Source: Lytechinus pictus (taxonomy: Eukaryota). Taken from it: a stretch of DNA of 64,000 bases. The translations under genes were made by a program, and so were the position numbers. Under the pieces are notes generated by a model. The model was not told the origin of the DNA, searched no databases, and was given only the letters and a program-made list of their open reading frames with translations. Shown here one piece after another: positions 2,962-62,987 of this stretch (position 1 is the first letter of the stretch; every line of letters begins with the position of its first letter). The stretch spans positions 23,624,001 through 23,688,000 of the forward strand of contig NC_087250.1 of assembly GCF_037042905.1 (NCBI RefSeq), written 5' to 3'.

Positions 2962-4046
2962 GTAAATAACTGGACATGTTAAAATGTTTCTGTGTGTGAA
3001 TTCCTGGCAGTGCTACTGCTAGACTCTGTTGCTGGAAAAAAAAAGCATATTGATGGGACTGAAGTAAAGAGTGAAGAAGGCTGTAACTGTTTTCTGTAAT
3101 GTTACGTGGTTGTGTCTTTGTTACTAATGGGTGTGATTCATAAAGTGTGAATTTCTCATGTTTGTAAGTAAGATTTGATTTCCTAGGGCTAGGCTAAAGT
3201 ATTGAGCATCTAGACAGGAATAACCGTCGTTTCTGGGGATTTATTCAACAATTTCTGACATTTTACTATAATCCCCATTAACCGACGGTAGGGTATACGT
3301 GTGGGCTCGCATGTGTTCTCATTCCCACCCTTTTGTCACTTCACAGTCCAAAGTTTGATGTAATTTTACACATCGAATTTACAATCTAAGGATGTATAAC
3401 CAACAAACTTTTAAAACTGGATATTTTGTTAACAAAATACTTTAAACGATATAGATGAAAAGGCATGAAAAATTATACTTTACCGATGTTTAATTGGGTT
3501 GAACACGATAAAAAAGGTCAATATGGCAGCCAAACTATGAAATATTTACAAACGAACGGAGAGGGCGTCAACAATCACGAATGTGATATCGATATTGCTT
3601 TCGATATTATACGATCTGCTCCTTATTTGAATTCATGAAAAGGATACGTACACTCTACCTCGGTAATCATATAACGCGAGCGCGTAGCGCTTGCTGGTTT
3701 TTAAAGATAAAATTATCATCACTATTATTTACTATTATTATATAATTATCATTATCGCTAAAATCATTGTGGTTTTTAAATATTATCGTTGTAAGTATTA
3801 ATATTTGTAGTAGTAATATTTCATTATCATCGTTATTATGATTATTATTATTTCATTATTATCATCATCATCATCATTGTCATTATTTTCATTATATATA
3901 TTATCACTATGGTTAAGAGATAAAAGAATAATATTTTTCAGATAAATGTTATAGTAAACTGGTCGGGTTGATAAAATTTCTTGTTTGAAATTGAATTCCC
4001 AATTGGTCATGACCAGTTCCAGTCATTCTCTGATGATGTCGAGTAC

Positions 4047-4708
4047 CAGTGGCGTACCGTGGGTCACGGCATTGGGGGGGGGGGCACCAGCAAAAATTTT
4101 GAGTCATTTACTGGGCTGGCGAAGCGCGCTCAATTGCCAGGTACTGACGTAATAGAAGCATTTTAAGGACTGTTTCATTAAACAGATATGTATCTCACTG
4201 ATTAAATAATGCGAGCGCGAAGCGCGAGCTGAGATTTTTGAAATTCAGACCTGAAGAGGGGCATTCTTAGGCTTGTTTGTAAAAATTCACTAAGGCCATA
4301 CGTATTTCACTTACTAAATTATGCGAGCGCGAAGCGCGAGCTGAAAATTTCTGATAGAGTTTTCAGACCAGTAAAGGGACAATTTTAAGGACTGTTTCAG
4401 GAATTCATGAAGAGCAGACATATCTCACCAGTCCATTGATGCGAACGTAAGCACTAACTGGGAATATTTTATATTCAGACTTTAAAAAAGGGGCAGTTTC
4501 TTTTAAGTAGTCATGAGTGCAAGTGCAAGGAAATACATGTATATGGTTGACTTGAAAACGGAATTTTTTAGTACAACATGATTATATATTTCATCAAACA
4601 GAAATTACGAGCACCAGGAATGATGAACACAATGTCATAGGCCCTTAGCAAAATATGTTTCATAATTAGAGTTATGAAAAAAATATTTATGTAATATAAT
4701 ATATTATA

Positions 4709-4740
<32 letters not shown>

Positions 4741-4895
4741 ACTTAATATAATAGAATATGCACTAGTTTCTTCTTCCTCTACTACGTCTCTCCTTTTTTT
4801 CTCCTTCTTTTTCTACTTTTCCCCCTTCTTTTTTTTGGCCAGCCGATGGGGGGGGGGGCACGTGCCCCCCATGCCCCCCCGTAGTTACGCCACTG
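4047..4895. mobile_element. hAT-like MITE
   Basis: TIR CAGTGGCGTA...TACGCCACTG. Degenerate 8-bp TSD TCGAGTAC/TTGAGCAC. Internal GCGAGCGCGAAGCGCGAG repeats. Confidence 0.7.
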
Positions 4896-5237
4896 TTGAG
4901 CACGTGTTTTACCTCACTTTCATACACTTTCTTTCCCTTCGTTTTTTTCAATCCGCGGCAGCTTTGTCGTGTTATTGACTTTTTCTTGTTCCTTTTCTTC
5001 ATATTCTGATTTTCAAATTCAACCTTTGTCTCTATATACCTTCATTTCGTATCTCTTTTTGTCGATTTCTCTCATTGTCCACCATTCTTGTCCATACCAC
5101 TGAGTCTCCTGCTAAAGACATGTTAAGGCCTATACTTTCTCGCATGTTGCATGTTCTAATTCTTTCTTTCTTTATTGTTGTCATTTTCCTTTGCTTTTTC
5201 ACCTTTCCCATTCCTCCCACCCCGGCCTCTTTCCTCG

Positions 5238-6345
5238 TTTTTGTCTCACCTGCATAGCAGAGTGAGACTATAGGCGCCGCTTTTCCGACGGCGGCGGCGG
5301 CGGCGGCGGCGGCGGCGTCAACACCAAATCTTAACCTGAGGTTAAGTTTTTGAAATGACAGCATAACTTAGAAAGTATATGGTCCTAGTTCATGAAACTT
5401 GGCCATAAGGTTAATCAAGTATTACTGAACATCCTGCCTGAGTTTCATGTCACATGACCATGGTCAATGGTCATTTAGGGTCAATGAACTTAGACCATGT
5501 TGGGGGAATCAACATCAAAATCTTAACCTAAGGTTAAGTTTTTGAAATGTCAACATAACTTAGAAAATATATGGACCTAGTTCATAAAACTTATACATAA
5601 GGTTAATCAAGTATCACTGAACATCCTGCATGAGTTTCACGTCACATGACCAAGGTCAAAGGTCATTTAGGGTCAATGAACTTTGGCCGAATTGGGTGTA
5701 TCTGTTGAATTACCATCATAACTTTAAAAGTTTATGGATCTGATTCATGAAACTTGGACATAATAGTAATCAAGTATTACTGAACATCCTGTGCAAGTTT
5801 CAGGTCACATGATTAAGGTCAAAGGTCATTTAGGGTCAATGAACTTTGGTCAAATTGGGGTATTTGTTGAATTACCGCCATAACTTTGAAAGTGTGTTGG
5901 TCTAGTAAATGAAACTTGGACATAAGAGTAATCAAGTATTACTGAACATTCTGTGCGCATTTTAGGTCACATGACCAAGGTCAAAGGTCAATGAACTTTG
6001 GCCATAATGGGGGTATCTGTTTAATTACCATTATAACTTGGAAAGTTGTTGGATCTTACTCTTGAAACTTGGACATAAGAGTAATCAAGTATCACTGAAC
6101 ATCCTGTGTGAGTTTCAGGTCACATGATCAAGGTCAAAGGTCATGTAAGGTCAATGAACTTTGGCCACGTTGGGGCTATTTGTTGAATTACCATCATATC
6201 TCTATAAGTGTATTGGTCTAGTTTATAAAACGTGGAAATAAGAGTAACCAAGTATCACTGAACATCTTGTGCGAGTTATAGTACTGCTATATGCTGCTAT
6301 ATTGAATCGCGTGATGCAGGTGAGACGGCCAGAGGCATTCATCTT
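5238..6345 (+). mobile_element. Tsp/DINE-1/HINE-like (Helentron-associated) element with ~160-bp internal tandem repeats
   Basis: Subterminal IR GTCTCACCTGCAT (5243) / ATGCAGGTGAGAC (6314). (GGC)n microsatellite. About 6 units carrying AATCAAGTATYACTGAACAT, most also with AGGTCAAAGGTCA. Confidence 0.75.
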
Positions 6346-6862
6346 GTCTTTTCTTCATTTTACCTTTTTCTCTTTTCGCCCTTTTCTCGGTGAAATCCGC
6401 CAGGGCCGGGGCAGCTCCCCCCCCCCCCCCCCCCCCCGGCGCCTGTTACGCCAGGAAGACCAAATGAACAGCCGATAAGACCAATAGGGACTACCAGTAA
6501 GACCAATTGAGTTCACTCAGTCGGATACCAACCACTAAGCCAAAACATCAGTAACAGACTCCAGTATAATTAAGACCAGTTTAAAATCCCAGTTACTATA
6601 GGCCTATTCAATACCAATGACTGGAGCAGTATTATTTGTAACTAGAACAGTATTACCAGACCGATAAACCAATACTCCAATTTCCAGAGTTACTGGTCCA
6701 ACTGGTCAAGTTGATTTTTTTTTCTTGTGGTTAATTTGATTTTCTATTTTTATCATTTGACAGATTATTGTCTTATCTCTTCATTTTGGGCTCGGTAAAA
6801 TGTAGTTTAATGTGTCTATGGACAATCAAGTCTCGAAATGTGTGATTTAAAGAGAAACTTAC

Positions 6863-7193
6863 CCGCCGTTTTTCTGGCTGTGTTTGTGTCGTCACATCTT
6901 TTTTTTGAAGGGGTGTCTGTGCTTGTGGGCTTGTCAGTCGTCTTCGTTTCTTTCGAAGAAATGGCGAAGCATAGCTGGTCACCTTCACCTTCCTCCCCAA
7001 GTAAACATTGATTCTACTAATTTTCTTTAATTTGGATTTATTATTTTTGATCGGGTGTCACTTTAATTCCTAATGATTCGACAGCGTCAGCAGTGGTGTA
7101 ATCACGGTGATCCATTTTTGCATTCAAAGTTCTTCTTTTATTAGGATGATTAGTCAAATTACGGTCACAATTACAACACCAGTAGTCAGACAT
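6863..7193 (-). pseudogene. Frameshifted exon encoding a CxxC- and NLS-containing peptide inside transposon copy 1
   Basis: On the minus strand: ttcattttAG acceptor (7200-7199), ATG 7193, MSDYWCCNCDRNLTNHPNKRRTLNAKMDHRDYTTADAVESLGIKVTP, a frameshift near 7050, then KSKLKKISRINVYLGRKVKVTSYASPFLRKKRRRLTSPQAQTPLQKK...EKRR, then donor CGG|GTAAGT at 6862. Confidence 0.6.
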
Positions 7194-7264
7194 AATTACT
7201 AAAATGAATTAATGAATCAAATAAAATTACCACCAGCAATCAGCACACCTACATGGCAATATAC

Positions 7265-9061
7265 TTTTTTTTAAAGATGTTTTGTTTTTCTCTCAAATCA
7301 AATTTCATACAATGCAGTTAACAAAGTAACAATTGTAAATAATAATTCAAATAAATTTCTTAAACTAGTATACATTATGCACATCATGAAATAATATTCT
7401 CAGACTGCATCGTACCACTACCAGATGAGTTTAACAAACAAATATCAGAGAAAAAACTTATAAAAGTATATGCGTTGCACCTGCCCCCTCCTTGCCCCCC
7501 CCCCTTCCCTCCACAAACCCCCACACTTCACACCCTCAAACATTTTTCGTACACCCTTGCATATGATGCCGCGTTCCGTCTGAAATAAGAAAACACCATA
7601 ATGAACGAACATAATCTCGTGAGCTCTGTCGCCTCTATACTCTTGTAAGGAAATGTTCCCATTTCCTTATATGGTTTGATAATTTACCCCTTGTTACTGC
7701 TAAAATTTTCTCTTCACGTTCATTTTCTAATATCTTCTCTCTAATTTCGTTGGGACTTGGTGGTCTTTTTAGTCCTGCTGTAAACAAAGATCAGATATTT
7801 TATTAAAAGAATAATGTGATTAATTATTTGTTCCTTCCCTATATTAGCATGCTTAACACCAATGTGTATATCCACCCACCTGGCATTTTTTATTTCATAC
7901 ATATTGAATAAGTTACCACAATCTATCCATAAGTCTCTCGTCTTTTCACATGAGAAAAACAGATGCTCGTAAGTTTCTTCAGTATTCCCACAAAATGAAC
8001 ATTCACTATCTGAGAAAATTTTGAATAAATGTAAATATTTCTTCGTGTATATTTACTCATAAAGCATTTTAAATTGAAACTCTCTAAGCCTACTGCTTAG
8101 AGTACATTTTCTGGGTCTTGAAAATATAGCACATATATCTTTTTCGGAGAAATTATATGTCTTATATTATCAAACGCATACGATTTTTCCAATTTAATAC
8201 TTAAAAGTGCCTTGTATATTTTATTAGATGTCACGTTTGGTAAACTGTTAATCTTACCATTAAATATAAATTCTAGATTTAGACCAGTGTCTTCACAATT
8301 GTCTTTTTTCTTCAATAGGTGTTTCCATGTTGCTGGAATATTTTCAAAAACTTTATAAACTTTATCTATTTCATTTCCATCTAAACCCATTTTCAGAAAG
8401 TCTCTTTGCTTCCACCATATAAATAATTTTTTTTATTTTACTTAGAATCTATTTGTAAATTAACATTTACCTGAATTTCTACATCTAATGATAAAGTTAT
8501 TCCTAATATTTTGATAGTTTCAACTAATTTACCAAATGGAACTTTAATATCTTTTGTAGAAAGAGGACCCAACGCTAATATAAATGTGTTTTCTTTATTC
8601 ATTTTTAAGCCTGAAATCTTAGCAAAATCTCCAAATATTTTTCCGATTCTATCAATAGATTGGGAGTCCCTCACAAAAAGTGTCATATCATCCGCATAGA
8701 GCGCTTGTTTGACTTCTACATTACCAAAGCTGATTCCGTGGATGGATTTATCTTTACGAATGGTATTAGAAAGGACCTCGATACAAAGTATAAACAAATA
8801 AGGAGAGAGGGGATCCCCATGTCTCACACCTCTTTCAACACTAAAGTATCCTGTCGATATACCCCCATTAAATACGCAACTCAGGGCATTTTTGTATAAT
8901 GTTTTGATCCAGCTGCAAAATGAGGACCCGAAGCCAAAAGAACGTAAAACGTTTTGCAAAAAGATGTGCGAGACCGAATCAAACGCTTTTTCAAAATCTA
9001 TTGCCATTAAGAAACCAGGTGCATTATTTTGTTGTGTGTAGTAAATCATATCGTCAATCAA

Positions 9062-9063
<2 letters not shown>
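7265..9063 (-). mobile_element. 5'-truncated, internally deleted L1/Tx1-clade LINE
   Basis: RT motifs IDFEKAFDSV, GVRHGDPLSPYLF and YADD in ORF 8438-9061. C-terminal CSFC...EHLFFSC zinc knuckle near 7950-8005. Stops and frameshifts present. Confidence 0.92.
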
Positions 9064-9097
<34 letters not shown>

Positions 9098-9274
9098 AAG
9101 TGCACACCTAGTTACAATAATGCATATAGCATTTACATTTATTTGAAAGCAGGATAAAAGAGCATTGAAGATTAAATGCTTTGCTGACGGGCATAGGTGC
9201 CGCGGCCGGGGATCGTACCCCGGACTTTTTCATGTATAGCCAGGCGCCTTAGACCACTCGGCCACGGCACCTCC
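9064..9274 (-). mobile_element. tRNA-derived SINE with poly(A) tail
   Basis: Head GGAGGTGCCGTGGCCGAGTGGTCTAAGGCG with A and B boxes; 30-nt poly(T) on the + strand. Related copy at ~33635-33772. Confidence 0.85.
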
Positions 9275-9727
9275 TAAATCTAATTGATCTAATACGATAC
9301 GATACACTACACGAAGATAAACGATACTAGTTATAATCGCGATAAATCGAGACATGAAAAAGTTAATAACGATAATGACGTCATTCAAGATGGCAACTTG
9401 CAAGAAAAACCGTCAGGTCAGGTGAAAATGTCTTAGATGACAGATTTCTCAATCATCCAGAGGATTTTTTTCAATAACTCCGGCCCAAGGTATGCAATTA
9501 CTTAAGTTATTTATATTACCCTGATAATGGAAACCATGAAAATGTCAATTTTGCCTAAAAAACAGTTTTAAATCGCGATCTATAAAACGCTAGTTCACTA
9601 TACGTTGGCTGTAGGTAGGGGCCCCCCTCCTCTTCAGTCTATGTATGGTGAGTGGAGCCAACGTAGTTCAGCGGAACAACCAAAATACAGAGACTGAAGC
9701 TTTTGGTCTATTGAGCATCATGCTATA

Positions 9728-10354
9728 TAGACAGGAATAACCGTCGTTTCTGGGGATTTATTCAACAATTTCTGACATTTTTACTGTAATCCCCATTCAC
9801 CGACGGTATTTCTACTAGTGTGTTACTTTAGTGCAAGCCTGCATGTGTAATCACGTCACCCATTCGGAGGACGGGTTTTGTCCAGATTTCAATTTTTTTA
9901 GATTCTAAATGGCATATTATCTTGAACGAAGGCCCACTGTGCACTATTTTCGTTAGGTAAATACATGTACGTCTGTAAGGATGATGACGTCATCCAAGAT
10001 GGCAACTTACGTTGACCAACGAAAGGATCGAAGATGACGATGTTTCGATCATCATTTGAAAGGAGTTAGCGGTAACCATGGTATCTGCTGTCTAAGGTAC
10101 GATATTTCAGAATTTTAAACATTTTTTCGTAAATATGGATGTGATTTCTTTTTCATAATGTGAAATTTTATGTAAAAAAAAAACGATTGGAAAATCGGGT
10201 TTCCGCCGAATGTTAGAGCAAGTTAGATCTAACGTTACTGCTAATACGTTGTCTGTACGTACGGGCCTCCAAGCTCTTCAGTCTATGTATTGGTGAGTGA
10301 GCCAACGCAGTTCAGCGGAACAACCAAAATACAGAGACTGAAGCTTTTGGTCTA
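9728..10354 (+). mobile_element. TAGAC...GTCTA transposon copy 2 (different interior)
   Basis: Same ~80-bp left and ~100-bp right ends as copy 1. TSD CATGCTATA (9719-9727) / CATGCTTTA (10355-10363), one mismatch. Confidence 0.85.
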
Positions 10355-10491
10355 CATGCTTTATTGTTTTTCAGCAAGTTTTCTACTGTCTACAGTGCAA
10401 CCGATGCCGATGGTGCATGTTTGCGTACTAATTTGAACCCAGTCCCAGTCAGTTGAACATGATTATGATAACCCCATTTCACAAAATTGCA

Positions 10492-11311
10492 TAGACCAAA
10501 AGCTTCAGTCTCTGTATTTTGGTTGTTCCGCTGAACTACGTTGGCTCCACTCACCATACATAGACTGAAGGGGATGGGGCCCCGTACCTACAGCCAACGT
10601 ATAGTGAACTAGCGTTTTATAGATCGCGATTTAAAACTGTTTTTTAAGCAAAATTGAAAGTTTCATGGTTTCCATTATCAGGGAAATATAAATAACTTAA
10701 GTAATTGCATACCTTGGGCCGGAGTTATTGAAAAAAATCCTCTGGATGATTGAGAAATCTGTCATCTAAGACATTTTCACCTGACCTGACGGTTTTTCTT
10801 GCAAGTTGCCATCTTGAATGACGTCATTATCGTTCTTAACTTAATGTCTCGAATCGATATATCGCGATTATAACTAGTACTAGTACTAGTATAACTAGTA
10901 TCGTTTATCTTCGGTTTCGTTCGCATATGGAGCAGATCGTATAATATCGAAAGCAATATCGATATCACATTCGTGATTGTTGACGTTCGTTTGTAAATAT
11001 TTTATAGTTTGGCTGCCATTTTGACCATTTAAACATCGGTAAAGTATATTTTTCATGCCTTTTTCATCTATATCGTTTAAAGTATGTAAACATTGGAATA
11101 TCAAGTTTTAAAAGTTTGTTGTTTATACATCCTTAGATTGTAAATGCGATGTGTAAAATTACATCAAACTTTGGACTGTGAATTGACAAAAGGGAGGGAA
11201 TGAGAACACATGCGAGCCCACACGTACACCCTACCGTCGGTAAATGGGGATTACAGTAAAATGTCAGAAATTGTTGAATAAATCCCCAGAAACGACGGTT
11301 ATTCCTGTCTA
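10492..11311 (-). mobile_element. TAGAC...GTCTA transposon copy 3 (820 bp, inverted)
   Basis: Reverse complement of the copy 1 arms joined together. Perfect TSD AAAATTGCA at 10483-10491 and 11312-11320. Confidence 0.9.
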
Positions 11312-11695
11312 AAAATTGCATAACAATTAACATAGCATGTCCAAACTTTGTGCATATTTCAGAAATAGTAATACCCTTCAGTCTCTGTTCAGTGTCCTGT
11401 ACTAAGAATTCTACATGTACTAACCAAATTGAAAATTATTGATGGCAGATAGTTATTAGTAGACTAAAATCTATTATGAAAATGTGAAGTTGATCTTATG
11501 ATTTTTTTTATTTTTGGTTGCATGATAAGTTCTCATTTTTCTTGGAGTTGGTGCCAAAGGTAACAAATTTGCTGTTTTGTCATAATTTTCATAAATACTT
11601 ATCTTTTCTTTGAAGAAATTTATTTTACAGTGTAATTTTAGGTTGTTTTTCATGTTGTTGATGAGAGATTTTCAAGATATTGAATTGTTTTTTAG

Positions 11696-33401: not shown

Positions 33402-35011
33402 GTAAGAATCATATTTTTTGTATCATTTGTTTATTTTTTTCCAAGTTTCATCCTTTACTGCTCTGACTGTTGCTATTGTGACAATTTTCAAACCACAACT
33501 TTTTGGAGTTTGATTGTTTTGTTGTCTTTGTGTTGATCAAAGACCCCAGTTAAACATGATTATTTCAAACGTAGAAGAAAAAACTTTTTAAAAAAAAGTG
33601 CACACCTAATAAAAAATACCAAGAACGCATCCATCATTTCCATTTATTTGAATGCATGATTAAAGAGCAATGTCTATGCCTTGCTCACAGACAGAGGTAT
33701 TGTGGCTGGGTATCGAACCCTGGACTTTCCATGTATAGCCAGGTGCCTTAGACCACTCGACCACGACACCTCGAGTACAAGTGTAAAGATAGTTTAGATT
33801 TTGGAATCTAAGTACCAGCATCATGGTTGCACTATTGTTAATGTTACAGAGATCAGGGCCTCGTAACACAAGGGTTGGTGATCAATCGTACGCTTGATTT
33901 TTACGATTGATTGTACATTGTAGTCAATAGGATCAATCGTAGAAAAATGTTCTATGATCATTGCTAAGTTTTGTGTCACGGTCCCCAGGGTGGGTCTAAC
34001 CTTTGGAAAAGGAGGGGCAAAATATTTCTCACTAGCCAAGAAAAAGGAAGAGAAAAAAAATGGAGGGGGGGGGGGGGGTGAGGTCAAAGCTCCGGACCAT
34101 TGGAGGCAATCCCTGTTAGAAAATATTGCCTAAAAAGGGGGGGGGGGAAGGGAGGGGGGGAATAAAAAGTCATAAAGGGAGGAGGGGGGGGGGGGGGGGC
34201 TCTCTACATGATGCCTTTGATCTCAATGTTTATATCATTGGTCCTACATGTAATGTGGGTGGGGTTTTTCCACCAAAACTTCTTCGTCCTTATTTAAGGC
34301 CCACCCACTGCGCCTATGGACCAATGAAGTATAATTTAGATTGTGCATGTACACGATTAATCAGAACTTTTAAGAATTTTGAGATTCAACCCCCATCATA
34401 GTTAGTTTTTTCTTTTTATTCTTAGTGTGTTTTGGTATATTGATATACGGTACTGTTCATTTCTAAAGCACCGTCAGCACAAACATGCATGTACTTCTCT
34501 CGTATATTTATTTGAAAATTGCGTTCAAAGATCACTCCTTGGATTTTATTAATTCTGTTTTGATGTGTTTATGTTTGTTTAAGGACAGACAACATTTGGG
34601 TCCAACGTTCAAATTTGAGTTTATGTCTGAATACCGATTATATTTTGGAGGTTCTTTCAAAGAAACTTTAGAGGTCACTATAAAAAGTGAACCCGTAACG
34701 TAATCTTTCCGCAATAATCAGTAATGAAATATTTGTATTATTAGTGTTTGTTCGTGATTCTTGCAATGTGGGCATGATACATGATTTGTGTGTAAGATAG
34801 ATGGAGAGAGAGAGAGGTGGGGAGTGGAGTGGAGGGGGGGGGGGGGAAGGGGAGCATGAGCATTTTACCTAGTCCCAGGCACAGGCTAATTTCAAACCCC
34901 ATCAATAGACTGTTGATTCCATTTTGGGGCAGTGTCCGAACAGGTTTTACAATTATGAAGGGAAACACAAAATATTTACATACAATCTGCCTATAGATGT
35001 GGAAATAAAGT

Positions 35012-56496: not shown

Positions 56497-58131
56497 GTAA
56501 GTATTCATTGAATTCCTCTATTCAAGTAATTATTTCACAACTCTTTTGAAATCATACATGTACAAACAAAGAGATATAAACAGATCAACAATTCCTTTAA
56601 ATAAATACTTTGTCTTTCCACAAGAAGGGACTTCATTTGATTGATTTTTTTTATTTCAAACATTGAAAAGGTGCATTGTAGGCTATCCGATGGTGCAAAA
56701 ATTTTTTTTTAATTCTAGTGAAACTCAAAATATCTGCAAAAAAGGGTATAATAATGAAGTAATCATAAAAATTTCCCTAAGTTTTTATTTGTGGAACTTA
56801 GAAATTACTATGATATTGCCGTGTGGCGGATATGAAAAACAGACAAGAATTTTTGCATGAATGTTTCACACAAAATGTATGTAAGCTTAATGAAATCCAA
56901 CAATTTATTTTCTCAAGAATAGTTGAACTTATTCCAAATGGTAAAAGAAAAGAATGGAGTGCTTCAAGTAGCAAGTATGGATAATATATAGAGTACATGG
57001 TGCATTAAGGAAGGCAAAATTCTTCAAAATTTTAGAAGAACAAGTGTCATTATTGCCCTCTTGTAATTAATACAATGAACAACAAGATAACGGTATTGAG
57101 AATCCGATCTATGTATTGTTTTAATGATTGTTCTTACTATGCAGGCACTTAAATCTAGATTGCGATTGGCAAGAGTAGTGACATAACATCTTACAATGTA
57201 TTTGTCATTACTTATTCTTAATTGAAGGACATGCTTGTATTGTATTCCATTATCTTTTATTGTGGGATTAGATACTTATCTCCTGGGTCCCGTAACACAG
57301 AGGTTAGCGATTGATCGTACGCTTGATTTCACGATTGATTGTACACTAGTCAATGGAATCAGTCGTAGAAAAATGTTCTACGATCATTGCTAAGCTTTGT
57401 GTTACGAGCCCCTTATCGTTTCCTAAACATTATCAGGGCCTCATGACGTAATGCTTCGCGATTGATCTTGGGGCTGATTTTTGTAATTGATCATTCACAA
57501 AAATCACTGCAATCAATCGTAGAAATAAGCTCTATTATCAATCGCTAAGGTTTGTGCTATAGGGCAGGGCACTGATATCTCAATATGAAATGTGTTTTCC
57601 CTGTGGTATATCAATGTGAAATAATAGGGGTTTTTCAAATCAAATGTACATACAACACTTTTGTTTCAAATTGTTTCCCCTAAATCTCAACCAAAATAAA
57701 TAATGAAATTGCCTGGCATTCCTGTTTGTTGTTGAAACCAAAGACCTACTACCCTATCTGTTGAAAATATTTTGCTTTTATAGTACTTGTCAGAAATTTT
57801 TCTCCATATTCCAATGCATTTTTTACCCATTGGAAAAAATTTTGATCGAAGGATGTCCGAAATTTGAAACTAATGAAAAAACATTTTCATCTCCCCAACA
57901 ATTATATAGTTTATTAACACCATGAGTACATAAACAGAATTGATTTCTAAATTATAATCAAAGATATCAGCCACTTTGAATGATTGCCAATAAATTGATC
58001 AAATATTTCTCTATTTCTGCAGATATTTCTTTCGTATTTTCCCTGTGGATCTTTATGAACGTAAATCTAGATGACGACAACGACATTGTAGAAAGAGTGA
58101 ACTATTAAACCATTTACAGTGATTGATAAAC

Positions 58132-58540
58132 ATGTCAGAAGAACTGACCAAACTCGCCAAATTGGCAAACAGCGCTGCGGGGGACAGTGACCTTGAGCTG
58201 AAGCTTAACACTTCGTTAGCTTCACCCAAGATGAGAGCGCTACACCTCAAGGATGAGATTGGACCGCTTGGGCCACCTGGACCTCCTGGACCACCTCCAG
58301 GAGGGATGAAAATGGAGGAGAAACCTATGAAGATGGAATTGGGAAGTAAGAACACTCAAGGGATGATGAGATTGGACCATATGAAAGGAGGAGGGGGAAT
58401 GGATATGAAGGTGGATGGGATTGCCGCGGTGATGAAGAAGGAGGAGGACGATGCGGTGTTTCTCCGGGATGGGCAGATGAACCAGGTTAATAGTCAGATG
58501 AATAATCAGATGATGAGCAACGGACCACAGGATGATAAAG
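58132..58540 (+). CDS. BCL9: BCL9/legless, first coding exon (MSEELTKLAK...PQDDK)
   Basis: Acceptor ttctctatttctgcAG ends at 58022. ATG 58132 is preceded by an in-frame TGA at 58120-58122. Donor AAAG|GTAGGA after 58540 is phase 1 and joins in frame to the HD1 exon. Confidence 0.85.
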
Positions 58541-58544
58541 GTAG

Positions 58545-58689
58545 GATGGTGATGGTAGTGATGATGGTGGTGATGATGATGATGATAATGATGATGAAGA
58601 TGATGATGATGATGGTGATGTTGATAATGGTGATGATGATGGTAGTGATGATGGTGATGATGATAGTGATGTTGATGTTGATGATGATA

Positions 58690-58775
<86 letters not shown>

Positions 58776-58820
58776 ATGGCAATTGTGATCATGGTGGTGG
58801 TGATGATGATGATGATGATA
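58545..58820. repeat. (ATG)n microsatellite at the start of a BCL9 intron
   Basis: Begins 4 nt into the intron that starts at 58541; includes a long perfect run. Confidence 0.95.
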
Positions 58821-58929
58821 TTGGGATATTATCAATGAAATTTTTTTATTCCTATTAAAGGAATCTTTCAAAAGCGAACTGCACCTTTTAGTCTAGCCAA
58901 TTTCACAAGGAGTGTCTCTTCTCTTTCAG

Positions 58930-59129
58930 GTATGAATATGCTACATCGGCAGGTGGGAGGCTACCCACATCCCCCAAACTTCACAATGCAAGACTCGCAG
59001 CACATCTACACGTTCTCAACGCTGCTAGCCAACAGGGCCGCCCAGGCAGTCTACACCGGTCAGACTGATTCCATTCTGGCCTACCATAGAGTCCAGTCCT
59101 GCAAGAGGAAGTTCTTAGATCCAGAAGAG
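58930..59129 (+). CDS. BCL9: BCL9/legless exon encoding HD1 (Pygopus-binding)
   Basis: Acceptor ctctttcAG|GT; donor GAG|GTCTGT, phase 0. Encodes HIYTFSTLLANRAAQAVYTGQTDSILAYH (59001-59087), matching the BCL9 HD1 pattern VYVFSTEMANKAAEAVLKGQVETIVSFH. Confidence 0.95.
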
Positions 59130-60058
59130 GTCTGTTCAACCAGCATTTTTTTTTTTAAATCATATGATGTAATCCTTTTAAAAAGGTGACTCAACATTTG
59201 CTCCGGGCTTTTTTTTGTTTAAGATGTAGGGTTAGGGTTGCTATAGGGTTTTATGTTGGGTTAAGGGTTAGGGTATAGTGATAAACCCAGGGTTGAAGAT
59301 GGTCATTCCATTACTGTGTGGAATTTACAGCGGAGCAATTGTTGCCGGAGCAAATGTCATGAAACCCTTAAAAAGGCCAGGGGGGAGGGGGCCACCCCTA
59401 AACATTCCCTTTACAAAGCCTAAAGGGAAACACAGAATTCAGTAGTCAACAAGTTCCCATTGCCTGCTGGACACTGGTGATCCTGTCCAAATCCTTGAGG
59501 AATCACATAATTCATAACTAGTCAACATGTTTTTTGTTGCTTACTGGATCCCAACAGGTACAAATACTTTAGGGGGGAATTTCATAATTTATATTTGATG
59601 TTTCAGTGATTTCTATTTTTTTCAAATGTTATGTACCTATGTGTTGCTCTGTACATTGATTGCACAATACTGTTTGACCTGCACATATTTGTAGTTGATT
59701 TGCCAGATTAGCTCAATGAAACATTAAGATCTCATGTGACAAATTCTGTGAATTTAGTTTATTTTGAAAGGAGTACCATAATGTTATGCAACATAATAGT
59801 CCTTTGGGAATTATCATCCCATCCTATCCAGAGCACCTTTCAGAAGACTTGCCATTATGGCAACTTTGTCACGAAGGTAGCTACCATGGTAACATGTCTC
59901 AGCAGCTAGTCGAAATCATGGTTTCCATGGTATGTCATAATGGCAAAGTTGCCATAATTGTAAGTTTACGTGAAATGCCACCTGGATTTGATTGTGCATT
60001 CCACTGGTAAATGTTTATTCTTTGAGAATGAAAACTTGTGTTTATCTTTTCTTCACAG

Positions 60059-61049
60059 GATACTGGAGCAGCTCCTAACCATTCAGGAAACACTGGTCCC
60101 GGCACACCTCAACAGAACAATACACAACAAGGGGTAGATGGGACTACAGTACAAAGTGCCAATGGCCAAAATGGCAAACCAGGAGCCATTGATAGTAGTA
60201 TGGATGGTGCTAGAAAAAGCATTGATAGTTTGAAAGGAAAGAACCCAGGAACACCTCAAAGTGTCCAAGAAGGAGTGGAAGGGAGCGAAAACTCAAGAAA
60301 GACGCCGCTTGAGAGCGGCACGGGGGGCGGGGGAACAACTACGACCAAAGGTAACAAGAAACGCAAGAGACCAAATTCGTCGTCGCAACCGCTTCAGGCG
60401 AACCTTCAAGGTGGCGGCCCTGGAGGACCAATGCAACAGGGCATGCCACCAAGTGGGCCAAGCTTTGGACCGTATGGACCGGGGGCATATCGACCAGGGT
60501 TCCCGCATCAGAACATGCCAATGCGCCCCGCGATGTCGTCGCAGTCGTTCCACAATCAGCCCTCCACAACTGAAACCGAGAACCTTGATCCCAGCGCGTT
60601 GTGGGAGAATCCGCCCAACGTCAAAAAGACAATGACCACCACCATGGCACCGTCCTTCCCACCCGACATGTCACCTATGCGGATGGCATCACCTAACCCC
60701 GCCATGAGGTCGCCGAGTGCAGGACTCGTCCTCGGAAACGAGAACATGGTGCCGCCCTCCGGCCCGCAAGGTCCACGTCCCTTCATGAGTCCTTCCCATC
60801 CATCCCAGTCTCTCCCAGCATCGCCCGTCAACCCTTATGATATGCCGAACTACAAACCACCGCAGCAGATAGACAACCCAACGCCGGAGCAGTTGCGGCA
60901 TCGGCAAGAAAGGTTGAGGACTCTCAAAGAGATGCAGAAGCTCCTGTTTCCTGAAGAACATGGCAGTATGTCTCCATCACCTGGAAGAATGATGTCACCT
61001 ATCGGGATGCCTCCTCCTCCTCAAGATCCTATGGCACAGCAACCTCAAG
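60059..61049 (+). CDS. BCL9: BCL9/legless exon encoding HD2 (beta-catenin-binding)
   Basis: Acceptor ttttcttcacAG; donor CAAG|GTAATC, phase 1. Encodes DNPTPEQLRHRQERLRTLKEMQKLLFPEE (60872-60958), matching the HD2 pattern LSQEQLEHRERSLQTLRDIQRMLFPDE. Confidence 0.95.
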
Positions 61050-61616
61050 GTAATCTATTTTCAAAAGCTATTTTGGAGACAGTGATTTTTCTCTCGCAAA
61101 TATGATCTTTTCCTTTTCTGATTACCTATCATTCTGTTTCAAACTTGATCTAAAATGGACTTTCTGATTTTTATAGAAAATGTACCCAGCAACATTATGA
61201 ATTTTGGTTTGAAAAGGTAAATTCATTGAATTTTTACATGAAATCCAAGGAACCAAAATGAAATTTTCTTTTTGATTTCCAGGTGAACAAAAGATCACCG
61301 TCCCTTCTAATTACTGGGGGTGGTTTCATCAGAACAAAGATGATACAATTAGCCTAATCAGAGAATAATGGACTAATTTTTTTTGCTATCCTGATATTTT
61401 GCTCATAAAGTCAGCCAATGTCATCTTGGACTTATTTCCAGAATATCATGCTAATGCTATTTTGCTGGACATCTTTCCCTGAAGGAAGTCAAGTCCACCC
61501 CTGTAATGCTTAGTGGAGCATGCCACACATTATGTGACCACGCAGCACAATCATTATTATGCCAATTTATTTGTGTGCATTTTCAGTTCTGGTGAAGATG
61601 TAATTCCAATTCAATC

Positions 61617-61891
61617 AGCGTGTTTCTACAGAGAATTGTTAAAAACGGTTTATCTTTTTCAGAATCAAAAAGCTGCAACCTGTTTCTACAGTGCGAATAA
61701 TCCGATTAACTCCGCATTCCAAACGGATTAACACGACAATAACCACCTCCCAGAGGTGGTTGTGAGAAACTGTATTTTGCACGATGCTTTATCAATAAAC
61801 CGCATCGCATCTGTTTCTACAGGGAAGTTTTCCGGAATTTTTGATACTTAGGCGGGTAATACCGTTTAACCATTCTCTGTAGAAACACGCC
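61617..61891. mobile_element. Harbinger-like MITE in a BCL9 intron
   Basis: GCGTGTTTCTACAGAGAAT...ATTCTCTGTAGAAACACGC. Confidence 0.8.
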
Positions 61892-62171
61892 GAATGTCCC
61901 TGATTTCAAATTACCCAGGATCTTTGTAACACTAGAATCTCTTCTGTAGTTTCTTATTGTAAATCTTGCAGCTTGATACTGTACCCTTTCTAATTTGACT
62001 TGATTCTAGATTTCCATGACATTTCTTTTGATGTGCACTGTTCAAACCTGTGAAACCTGGGCCTGGTAACATAGAGCTTGGCGATTGATGGTGGGGCTGA
62101 GTTCTACAATCGATTCCATTGGGTATTTGGTATGATCAGTCGTGAAAACCAGCCCCAAGATTGATCGCTAA

Positions 62172-62321
62172 TACCTTGGTCACATTTGTACTACGGCGGC
62201 TGTAAGGCGAGTCGTAAAAACAGTCGTTTTAACATTTTTTTTGTACCAGCTACATATAGGTGGTTTGAATAAAAATGAAGACTCGCCGTACGGCCGCCGT
62301 AGAACAAATGTGACCAAGGTA
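62172..62321. mobile_element. Harbinger-like MITE with TAA TSD nested in a CWG-type MITE (62059-62343)
   Basis: TAA|TACCTTGGTCACATTTGT...ACAAATGTGACCAAGGTA|TAA. Confidence 0.88.
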
Positions 62322-62422
62322 TAAGCTTCATGTTACAGTACCCAGCTCGCATTTCAGTGAGCTACCCTTCGGAGATGTAACTAACCCAGATTACATTGTT
62401 TGCCCTCCCCCCCCCCCCTCAG

Positions 62423-62617
62423 CGATGATGTCACCGGGTGGAGGTCCCATGATGCGCCCCATGGGCCCCAGCGGTCCTATGATGGGGCCAGGTGGACCCG
62501 GAGGACCACACTCTATGATGCACCAAGGTATGGGACCAGGAATGCATCCCCGGATGCCTGCCCAGGATGGTATGAGGGGTATGAGCCCTGACCAACGCAT
62601 GATGATGGCCAATTCTG
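62423..62617 (+). CDS. BCL9: BCL9/legless Gly/Pro/Met-rich exon
   Basis: Poly-C tract plus ctcAG acceptor; donor TCTG|GTAAGT. Phase 1 at both ends, consistent with the neighbouring exons. G/P/M-rich composition typical of BCL9. Confidence 0.9.
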
Positions 62618-62987
62618 GTAAGTAGAAATAGAATGTAAAATAGGCATTAATTGTTTATATTTACTGGTATTCACTTGGACCATTTCATGAAACTGGTTTT
62701 AATAACAAATTTGCAAAAGCAGTGAAAAGCTACTGAAATCCTTCAATATGATTGGTTATAGTTATTGTTTATGTCATTTTCTGTGTCACTATTTCATAAA
62801 ACAAATAATGCACTTGATCTGTCGTGTGTAGTAAAGGCTTGGTTTGTTTAGATTGTGCACACTGGACATTCACATAAAGGCTTGTTCATGGTGCAGCACA
62901 TTTACACATAAACCTCGCTTACACTGCATTTCCACTGATGCTCTCGGTTCTGTTTTGTAATAGCTATTTCTTTGGCTGTCTTTTCAG

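Follow-up and report, generated by a model that had tools for sequence, protein, structure and literature searches.

A frameshifted remnant in a TAGAC-ended transposon copy of Lytechinus pictus is very probably the first coding exon of an AcademH-type transposase gene

The AcademH lineage of Academ DNA transposons is reportedly defined in a 2020 paper by Kojima. We take DUF6589 to be the Academ transposase, and a PHD finger within a DUF6589 transposase presumably marks the architecture of the PHD-bearing animal AcademH sublineage. An autonomous AcademH element is expected to combine an Academ-type DDE transposase with a RecQ-like helicase gene. Another described system that resembles part of the present locus is zf-AD, or ZAD (PF07776), a C4 domain through which insect transcription factors dimerise. 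The ZAD pattern comprises two CxxC pairs, the second of which follows an LGI-x-V motif and precedes a helix. The available part of one source gives target-site duplications (TSDs) of 9-10 bp for AcademH and of 3-4 bp for AcademX (PMC10045372). In the available part of Table S3 of a second source, all six Marasmius Academ families start with TAG and have a 9-bp TSD (uncertain in one family), one of them starting with TAGACC, and their inverted repeats are listed as 167, 160, 159, blank, blank and 5 bp (PMC8290104). The Marasmius MULE families with a 9-bp TSD are given in the same part without a TAG start (PMC8290104). In the accessible part of a paper that names DUF6589, it is not equated with the Academ transposase.

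We analyzed a 64,000-nt stretch of the L. pictus genome, referred to here as the window. It contains E1, a 6500-bp non-autonomous copy of an AcademH-type DNA transposon (3211..9710) with TAGAC...GTCTA ends, flanked by the perfect 9-bp target-site duplication TTGAGCATC on the left (3202..3210, plus strand) and right (9711..9719, plus strand). The left arm of E1 (3211..3626, plus strand) shares 88% identity with the corresponding arm of E3, an 820-bp inverted copy (10492..11311, minus strand) with the perfect 9-bp duplication AAAATTGCA. The right arm (9290..9710, minus strand), in which 9325-9711 is 96% identical to E3, is presumed to be the promoter side of the transposase gene. Between them lies E2 (9728..10354, plus strand), a 627-bp copy with the same two ends and a 9-bp duplication with one mismatch (8/9). 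Each of the three copies pairs one left end with one right end. The perfect inverted repeat between left and right ends is 5 bp (TAGAC) and the arms are otherwise unrelated; the long inverted repeats are those of the E1 and E3 left ends with each other and of the E1 and E3 right ends with each other. A terminus search of the window found no other exact ends of TAGAC elements, and four weak matches only.

E1 and its neighbors share with AcademH the 9-bp duplications (on all three copies, two perfect and one at 8/9) and the TAG...CTA termini (TAGAC...GTCTA in 3/3); to these the full-length homologue P0008 would add a transposase-like DUF6589 body with an inserted PHD finger. They differ in that E1 retains one broken exon only and in that the perfect inverted repeat is just 5 bp. 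Judged from its sequence, E1 works like an AcademH element and belongs there by its ends and duplication. A MULE was considered for the 9-bp duplication and was set aside on the TAG ends and the DUF6589 homologue.

The three copies lie within 8.1 kb (3211-11311), and the left duplication of E2 overlaps the right one of E1 by a base; local hopping or target preference is a possible cause of this clustering. The word TGACGTCA adjoining CAAGATGGC (9360-9400, 9976-10008) is kept in E1, E2 and E3, though the E2 interior otherwise differs; we take these to be CRE-like and YY1-like words.

The 5.7-kb middle of E1 is a mosaic of element remains and several nested insertions rather than one unit. These insertions include a LINE remnant with RVT_1 and zf-RVT pieces by Pfam (7741..9091, minus strand) and a repeat with a poly(A) run (9062..9273, minus strand), which is labeled SINE-like from a reading of its sequence and has a 76% identical copy at 33585-33772; neither ARAGORN nor an Rfam search over 3200-11400 supported the label with a tRNA or Rfam match. 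Two others are an element with (CGG)n, about five internal 152-192-bp units and GTGAGAC repeats at its bounds (5262..6326), which we take to resemble non-autonomous Helentron/DINE-like repeats, and an element with CAGTGG...CCACTG ends (4047..4895), presumably hAT-like, whose flanking 8-mers agree at 6/8 positions. The 152-192-bp units contain GGTCAAAGGTCA. Between these two elements, 4896-5260 is a stretch that is purine-rich on the minus strand and holds open frames 92 and 111 codons long; it does not match P0008 and is perhaps a LINE 3' remnant. The initial annotation had argued from the lack of a TSD around the cargo as a whole. With a middle that is a mosaic, a missing overall TSD says nothing about capture, and that argument falls away.

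The remnant itself lies on the minus strand. An ATG at 7193-7191 opens MSDYWCCNC...ESLGIKVTPDQK, which runs for 50 codons and ends in TAA TAA. This first half of the coding exon (7043..7193, minus strand), delimited by sequence and by alignment to homologues, holds the ATG, the first CxxC (WCCNC), an RRTL motif and LGI-x-V-T-P. The second half (6863..7042, minus strand) is read one base on from the first as KSKLKKISRI...SPFLRKKRRRLTSPQAQTP, then LQKKDVTTQTQPEKRR, up to GTAAGT at 6862-6857. Its peptide, also written KSKLKKISRI...RKKRRRLTSPQAQTP...PEKRR, reaches this donor in phase 0 and comprises the end of a predicted long helix, a conserved YLG and a basic linker rich in SP/TP. Within the linker, RKKRRR (6938..6955, minus strand) is a basic run resembling a nuclear localization signal (NLS) by pattern. 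Both halves of the frame and the GTAAGT had been proposed in the initial annotation and are present as proposed; the break it had placed near 7050 is at 7043/7042, and its quotation of the second half, although of a peptide that is there, stops 16 residues short of the donor.

The putative splice signals are an acceptor-like TTTTAG five bases ahead of the ATG (7199..7204, minus strand) and the phase-0 GTAAGT donor (6857..6862, minus strand), at which point P0005, a homologue described below, diverges from P0008. TTTTAG occurs 0.59 times and GTAAGT 0.22 times per kb of strand in the window, and a pyrimidine run with an AG no more than 8 nt from an ATG 0.71 times per kb, so that these signals carry little weight on their own. 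None of the four sequencing runs compared contains a spliced joint at 6862 or near 7200, and several contigs run unspliced across the donor; with no joint at either site in those runs, splicing of the exon is something we infer. The frame stays open for 29 codons beyond the donor, and a protein of ~164 aa would result if the intron were read through.

Homologues were sought with phmmer, using the first half alone as the query against 1.84 billion representative proteins. Four sequences were listed. The true homologues among them are P0004, with 390 aa (E 1.2e-5), and P0005, with 149 aa (E 6e-5). P0006 and P0007, tandem-repeat sequences without the CxxC pattern, were rejected and excluded from all counts. 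The second half, which was absent from the query, matches further down in P0005 (E 4e-6) and in P0008 (E 7e-6). P0008 is the Lytechinus variegatus uncharacterized protein LOC121407551 (1031 aa), the single match among 3564 longer candidates for P0004, which is 86% identical to it across all 390 residues (the first 390 of P0008). P0008 contains DUF6589 (Pfam PF20231) at 462-906 (E 2.7e-23), with a PHD finger inserted at 728-785 that matched the ING2 PHD in a PDB sequence search (E 0.0025). Against the read-through protein it scores E 4e-19, with 31% identity over 137 columns. P0008 has the same N-terminal order and spacing as the remnant (YWCCNC...RR-L...LGI...CxxC...YLG...basic linker); unlike the remnant, it is intact and carries a gene annotation, and the identity over the exon is 31%. 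When the first 160 aa of P0008 were compared with the window by tblastn, both halves were recovered in order at E 5e-15, against E 0.16 for the best of 40 block-shuffled windows. The whole of P0008 recovered the two halves only (E 5.7e-14) and no further exon in E1.

Several other searches were negative or noisy. Word-index searches with the read-through protein gave 0/38 candidates among longer proteins and none at near length. A search of the Atlas with the first half returned only viral 'hypothetical' clusters with scores below 0.9, which were rejected as noise. No locus was found in viral contigs with P0008 or with the left terminus, or in metagenome contigs with alignment A3 or with a 26-nt exon motif. 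A structure model of P0008 was too poor for fold comparison (pLDDT 34.8). P0008 is on record on 1 contig and two of its likely catalytic acidic positions look replaced, going by Academ motifs; it is possibly a domesticated sea-urchin Academ gene.

In P0004 and P0005 the break in the window copy corresponds to a gap of 25-27 residues that contains a second CxxC. All three true homologues carry this second pair in the gap, the two pairs standing 48-50 residues apart. To compare other copies of the exon, four of the 24 listed sequencing runs (X1, X4, X5 and X23) were aligned to window positions 6440-7720. X23 is a raw RNA run, of which ~6 in 100 was read and 28 reads aligned. In three of the four runs (X1, X4 and X5, one contig each), 74 extra letters stand exactly between 7042 and 7043; the 28 reads from the portion of X23 that was read contain no 74-letter joint. 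These letters and simple arithmetic place a 74-nt deletion at 7042..7043 (minus strand), by which the second CxxC was lost and the frame shifted. As 74 leaves 2 on division by 3, its return joins the halves into a single 405-nt frame of 135 codons. The distance from LGI to YLG with the 74 letters is 48 codons (counted by hand), compared with 49 in P0008, 50 in P0004 and 48 in P0005. The idea that a C4 domain had lost its second CxxC in a frameshifting deletion is thus borne out by the homologues, and the gene remnant is real on the strength of the collinear homology of both halves and the 74 letters that restore the frame.

These results also bear on whether the open frames and splice signals arose by chance. 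In favor of chance, none of the splice-like signals is rare in the window, and neither word-index search with the read-through protein gave a homologue. Against it, the two halves are collinear with homologues and the 74 letters restore the frame. The initial annotation would have read an absence of homologues with collinear halves as a chance open reading frame; P0005 and P0008 are such homologues. Chance is refuted by them, and we give it practically no weight.

Differences between the copies are mixed in character. Among the 12 of 37 indels listed, the frame survives all three events within the exon (+3, +2+1, -3), compared with two of eight outside it. Among the 40 of 120 substitutions listed, four of five in the second half are at third positions of the frame given in the initial annotation. 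All four of those in the first half are non-synonymous in the coding frame, so this half displays no sign of purifying selection in that set; one of them makes the other copies begin MADY, like P0005. Two loose ends of X5 contigs were translated by hand. The one at 7046 reads K-L-A-stop-S-N-S-S-V, in register with K-L-S-K-S-Y-T-S-V of P0005. The other, at 7058, gives K-D-K-Q-K-F-I with the frame shifted by one base, where P0005 has K-T-A-D-Q-H-I ahead of its second CxxC. These translations indicate that the missing piece is homologous, and the stop and the one-base shift that those copies are broken too.

We conclude that the remnant very probably represents the opening coding exon of the gene from which an AcademH-type cut-and-paste transposon makes its transposase; the copy in the window is dead and internally deleted. 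This is the simplest reading, because P0008 continues from this exon into the DUF6589 body; the link between exon and DUF6589 comes from one named gene model, P0008, at 31% identity over 137 columns. The remnant had been thought to be either an accessory gene of the autonomous element or a captured host exon, and the run of P0008 from the exon into a transposase-like body speaks against both. Its placement in the TAGAC element was correct: the exon lies in E1 and other copies of it adjoin the right arm.

Capture would mean that the exon originated in a host gene, itself a descendant of a domesticated P0008-like Academ transposase, and then travelled with a non-autonomous element. P0008 has 4 member sequences, a single contig and, in another record, a relative at 86% identity, a pattern that a conserved host gene might show. 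Going by Academ motifs, it also seems to have replacements at two of the three positions where catalytic acidic residues are likely (~410-415, 898-906). The window exon is, however, just 31% identical to P0008, is present in several diverged copies (the similarity of the contigs ranging from 99+% to under 90%), and sits near one end of, and faces into, an element of the superfamily to which such proteins belong. We therefore regard capture as improbable. A separate accessory gene, with only the zinc module in common with the transposase, is suggested by P0005, which has 149 aa without a transposase body. P0005 ends 14 residues past the point aligned to the donor, where P0008 continues into its body, and looks as if an exon had been read into an intron, which lends indirect support to a shared intron; P0004 and P0008 both continue from the same exon into a transposase-like body. 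An accessory gene is accordingly rated as quite improbable, a shade below capture.

If the remnant is the first coding exon of a transposase gene, the other copies suggest how the parent element was laid out. In X1, X4 and X5 a loose end behind 7264 finishes in 22 letters identical to window positions 9290-9311, so that in other copies this segment of the right arm follows 7264 almost directly. As the 22 letters adjoin the arm shared with E3, they point to compact copies in which the ATG would be ~500 nt from the right end and point inward. Some contigs pass from the 5' side of the exon into 7265-7427 and not into the right arm; two forms therefore exist, and the compact form is not necessarily ancestral. 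In the parent element, going by the compact copies, the gene would start ~500 nt inside the right end and read inward, with transcription presumably starting in the right arm. The exon would have encoded 135 residues, consisting of a CxxC, about 46-47 residues, a second CxxC, a long helix and then the basic linker. The four cysteines would bind one zinc, and the module most likely aids dimerisation or the holding of transposon ends, to judge from its ZAD likeness. The basic, SP/TP-rich linker behind the zinc module agrees with the earlier proposal of an NLS with SP/TP sites; going by pattern, it probably carries such a signal and would import the enzyme into the nucleus. Splicing at GTAAGT would join the exon to others that encode a helical region and the catalytic DUF6589 body, on the model of P0008. 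E1 lost 74 nt of this exon and gained several nested insertions, and internal deletion would have removed all downstream exons; it makes no working protein and would be mobile only with enzyme from another copy.

Truncated P-element proteins act as repressors, and by analogy, copies with an internal deletion that spares the exon and the promoter side could make a ~164-aa protein with a zinc finger and an NLS that dampens the transposase. The frame that stays open for 29 codons past the donor, the same outline in P0005 and the compact exon-bearing copies in 3/4 runs are compatible with such a product. Against it, the window copy is frameshifted, and other copies have a stop codon (one) or a one-base shift (another). 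Neither X1 nor X5 is recorded as an RNA run, and of the 28 reads from the RNA run X23 (~6 in 100 of it read), 25 are under 95% alike, with both strands represented. A short repressor thus seems very improbable, and the first coding exon of a full transposase remains our reading.

The N-terminal module of this exon resembles a ZAD in its CxxC pairs about 48-50 residues apart, its LGI-x-V and its trailing helix. Two CxxC pairs flanking an insert of 40-60 residues, as in ZAD, are present in 3/3 homologues, the second pair being deleted in the window copy. The exon family differs in having no Pfam zf-AD match and no following C2H2 array. Pfam zf-AD (PF07776) did not match P0002, P0003, P0004, P0005 or P0008, nor did it match any of the four aligned members at E 10. 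A model of the zinc module from the four-sequence alignment had a pLDDT of 35, at which a long dimerising helix or a treble-clef is unreadable, and a PDB sequence search at E up to 10 gave 11 matches, none of them a ZAD. Among the Atlas neighbors of P0004, the second-ranked cluster (score 0.90, mostly Mollusca) has zf-AD on 22% of its members, and a DUF6589 cluster is 14th (score 0.76). Given the lack of a Pfam zf-AD match and the unusable models, the module is not classed as a ZAD. It is conceivable, although we think it unlikely, that animal AcademH transposases open with a true but unrecognised relative of ZAD that lies outside the arthropods and outside the Pfam model. In that case the ZAD relative would be the dimerisation domain of AcademH, and Academ transposons would be a reservoir, and possibly the source, of insect ZAD. 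A link to transposons would then be of interest for the evolution of insect zinc-finger proteins. Searches for AcademHP, and for Academ with transposase and zf-AD, found nothing in print, in a scope that lay outside Kojima 2020, its supplements and Repbase.

The N-terminal module is not described in the available parts of PMC10799480, PMC5751038, PMC5199201, PMC7805219, PMC10294476, PMC12210899, PMC9004415, PMC9587614 and bioRxiv 2025.10.24.684071. The copy itself is ordinary transposon debris and adds modest new detail on a little-studied enzyme. Through it, a CxxC-x46-CxxC module with a basic linker can be assigned to the N-terminal part of a DUF6589/PHD transposase and connected with TAGAC ends and 9-bp duplications. 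The enzyme of this superfamily lacks a named Pfam family and, by PDB sequence search, has no solved relative beyond the PHD finger. The exon can serve as a probe for autonomous AcademH elements in echinoderm genomes and helps to re-label 'uncharacterized' gene models such as LOC121407551. Elsewhere in the window, ~50 kb away, exons of a BCL9-like gene lie at 58123-62625 (plus strand), with a Pfam BCL9 match (E 5.3e-10) in the frame 60035-61102.
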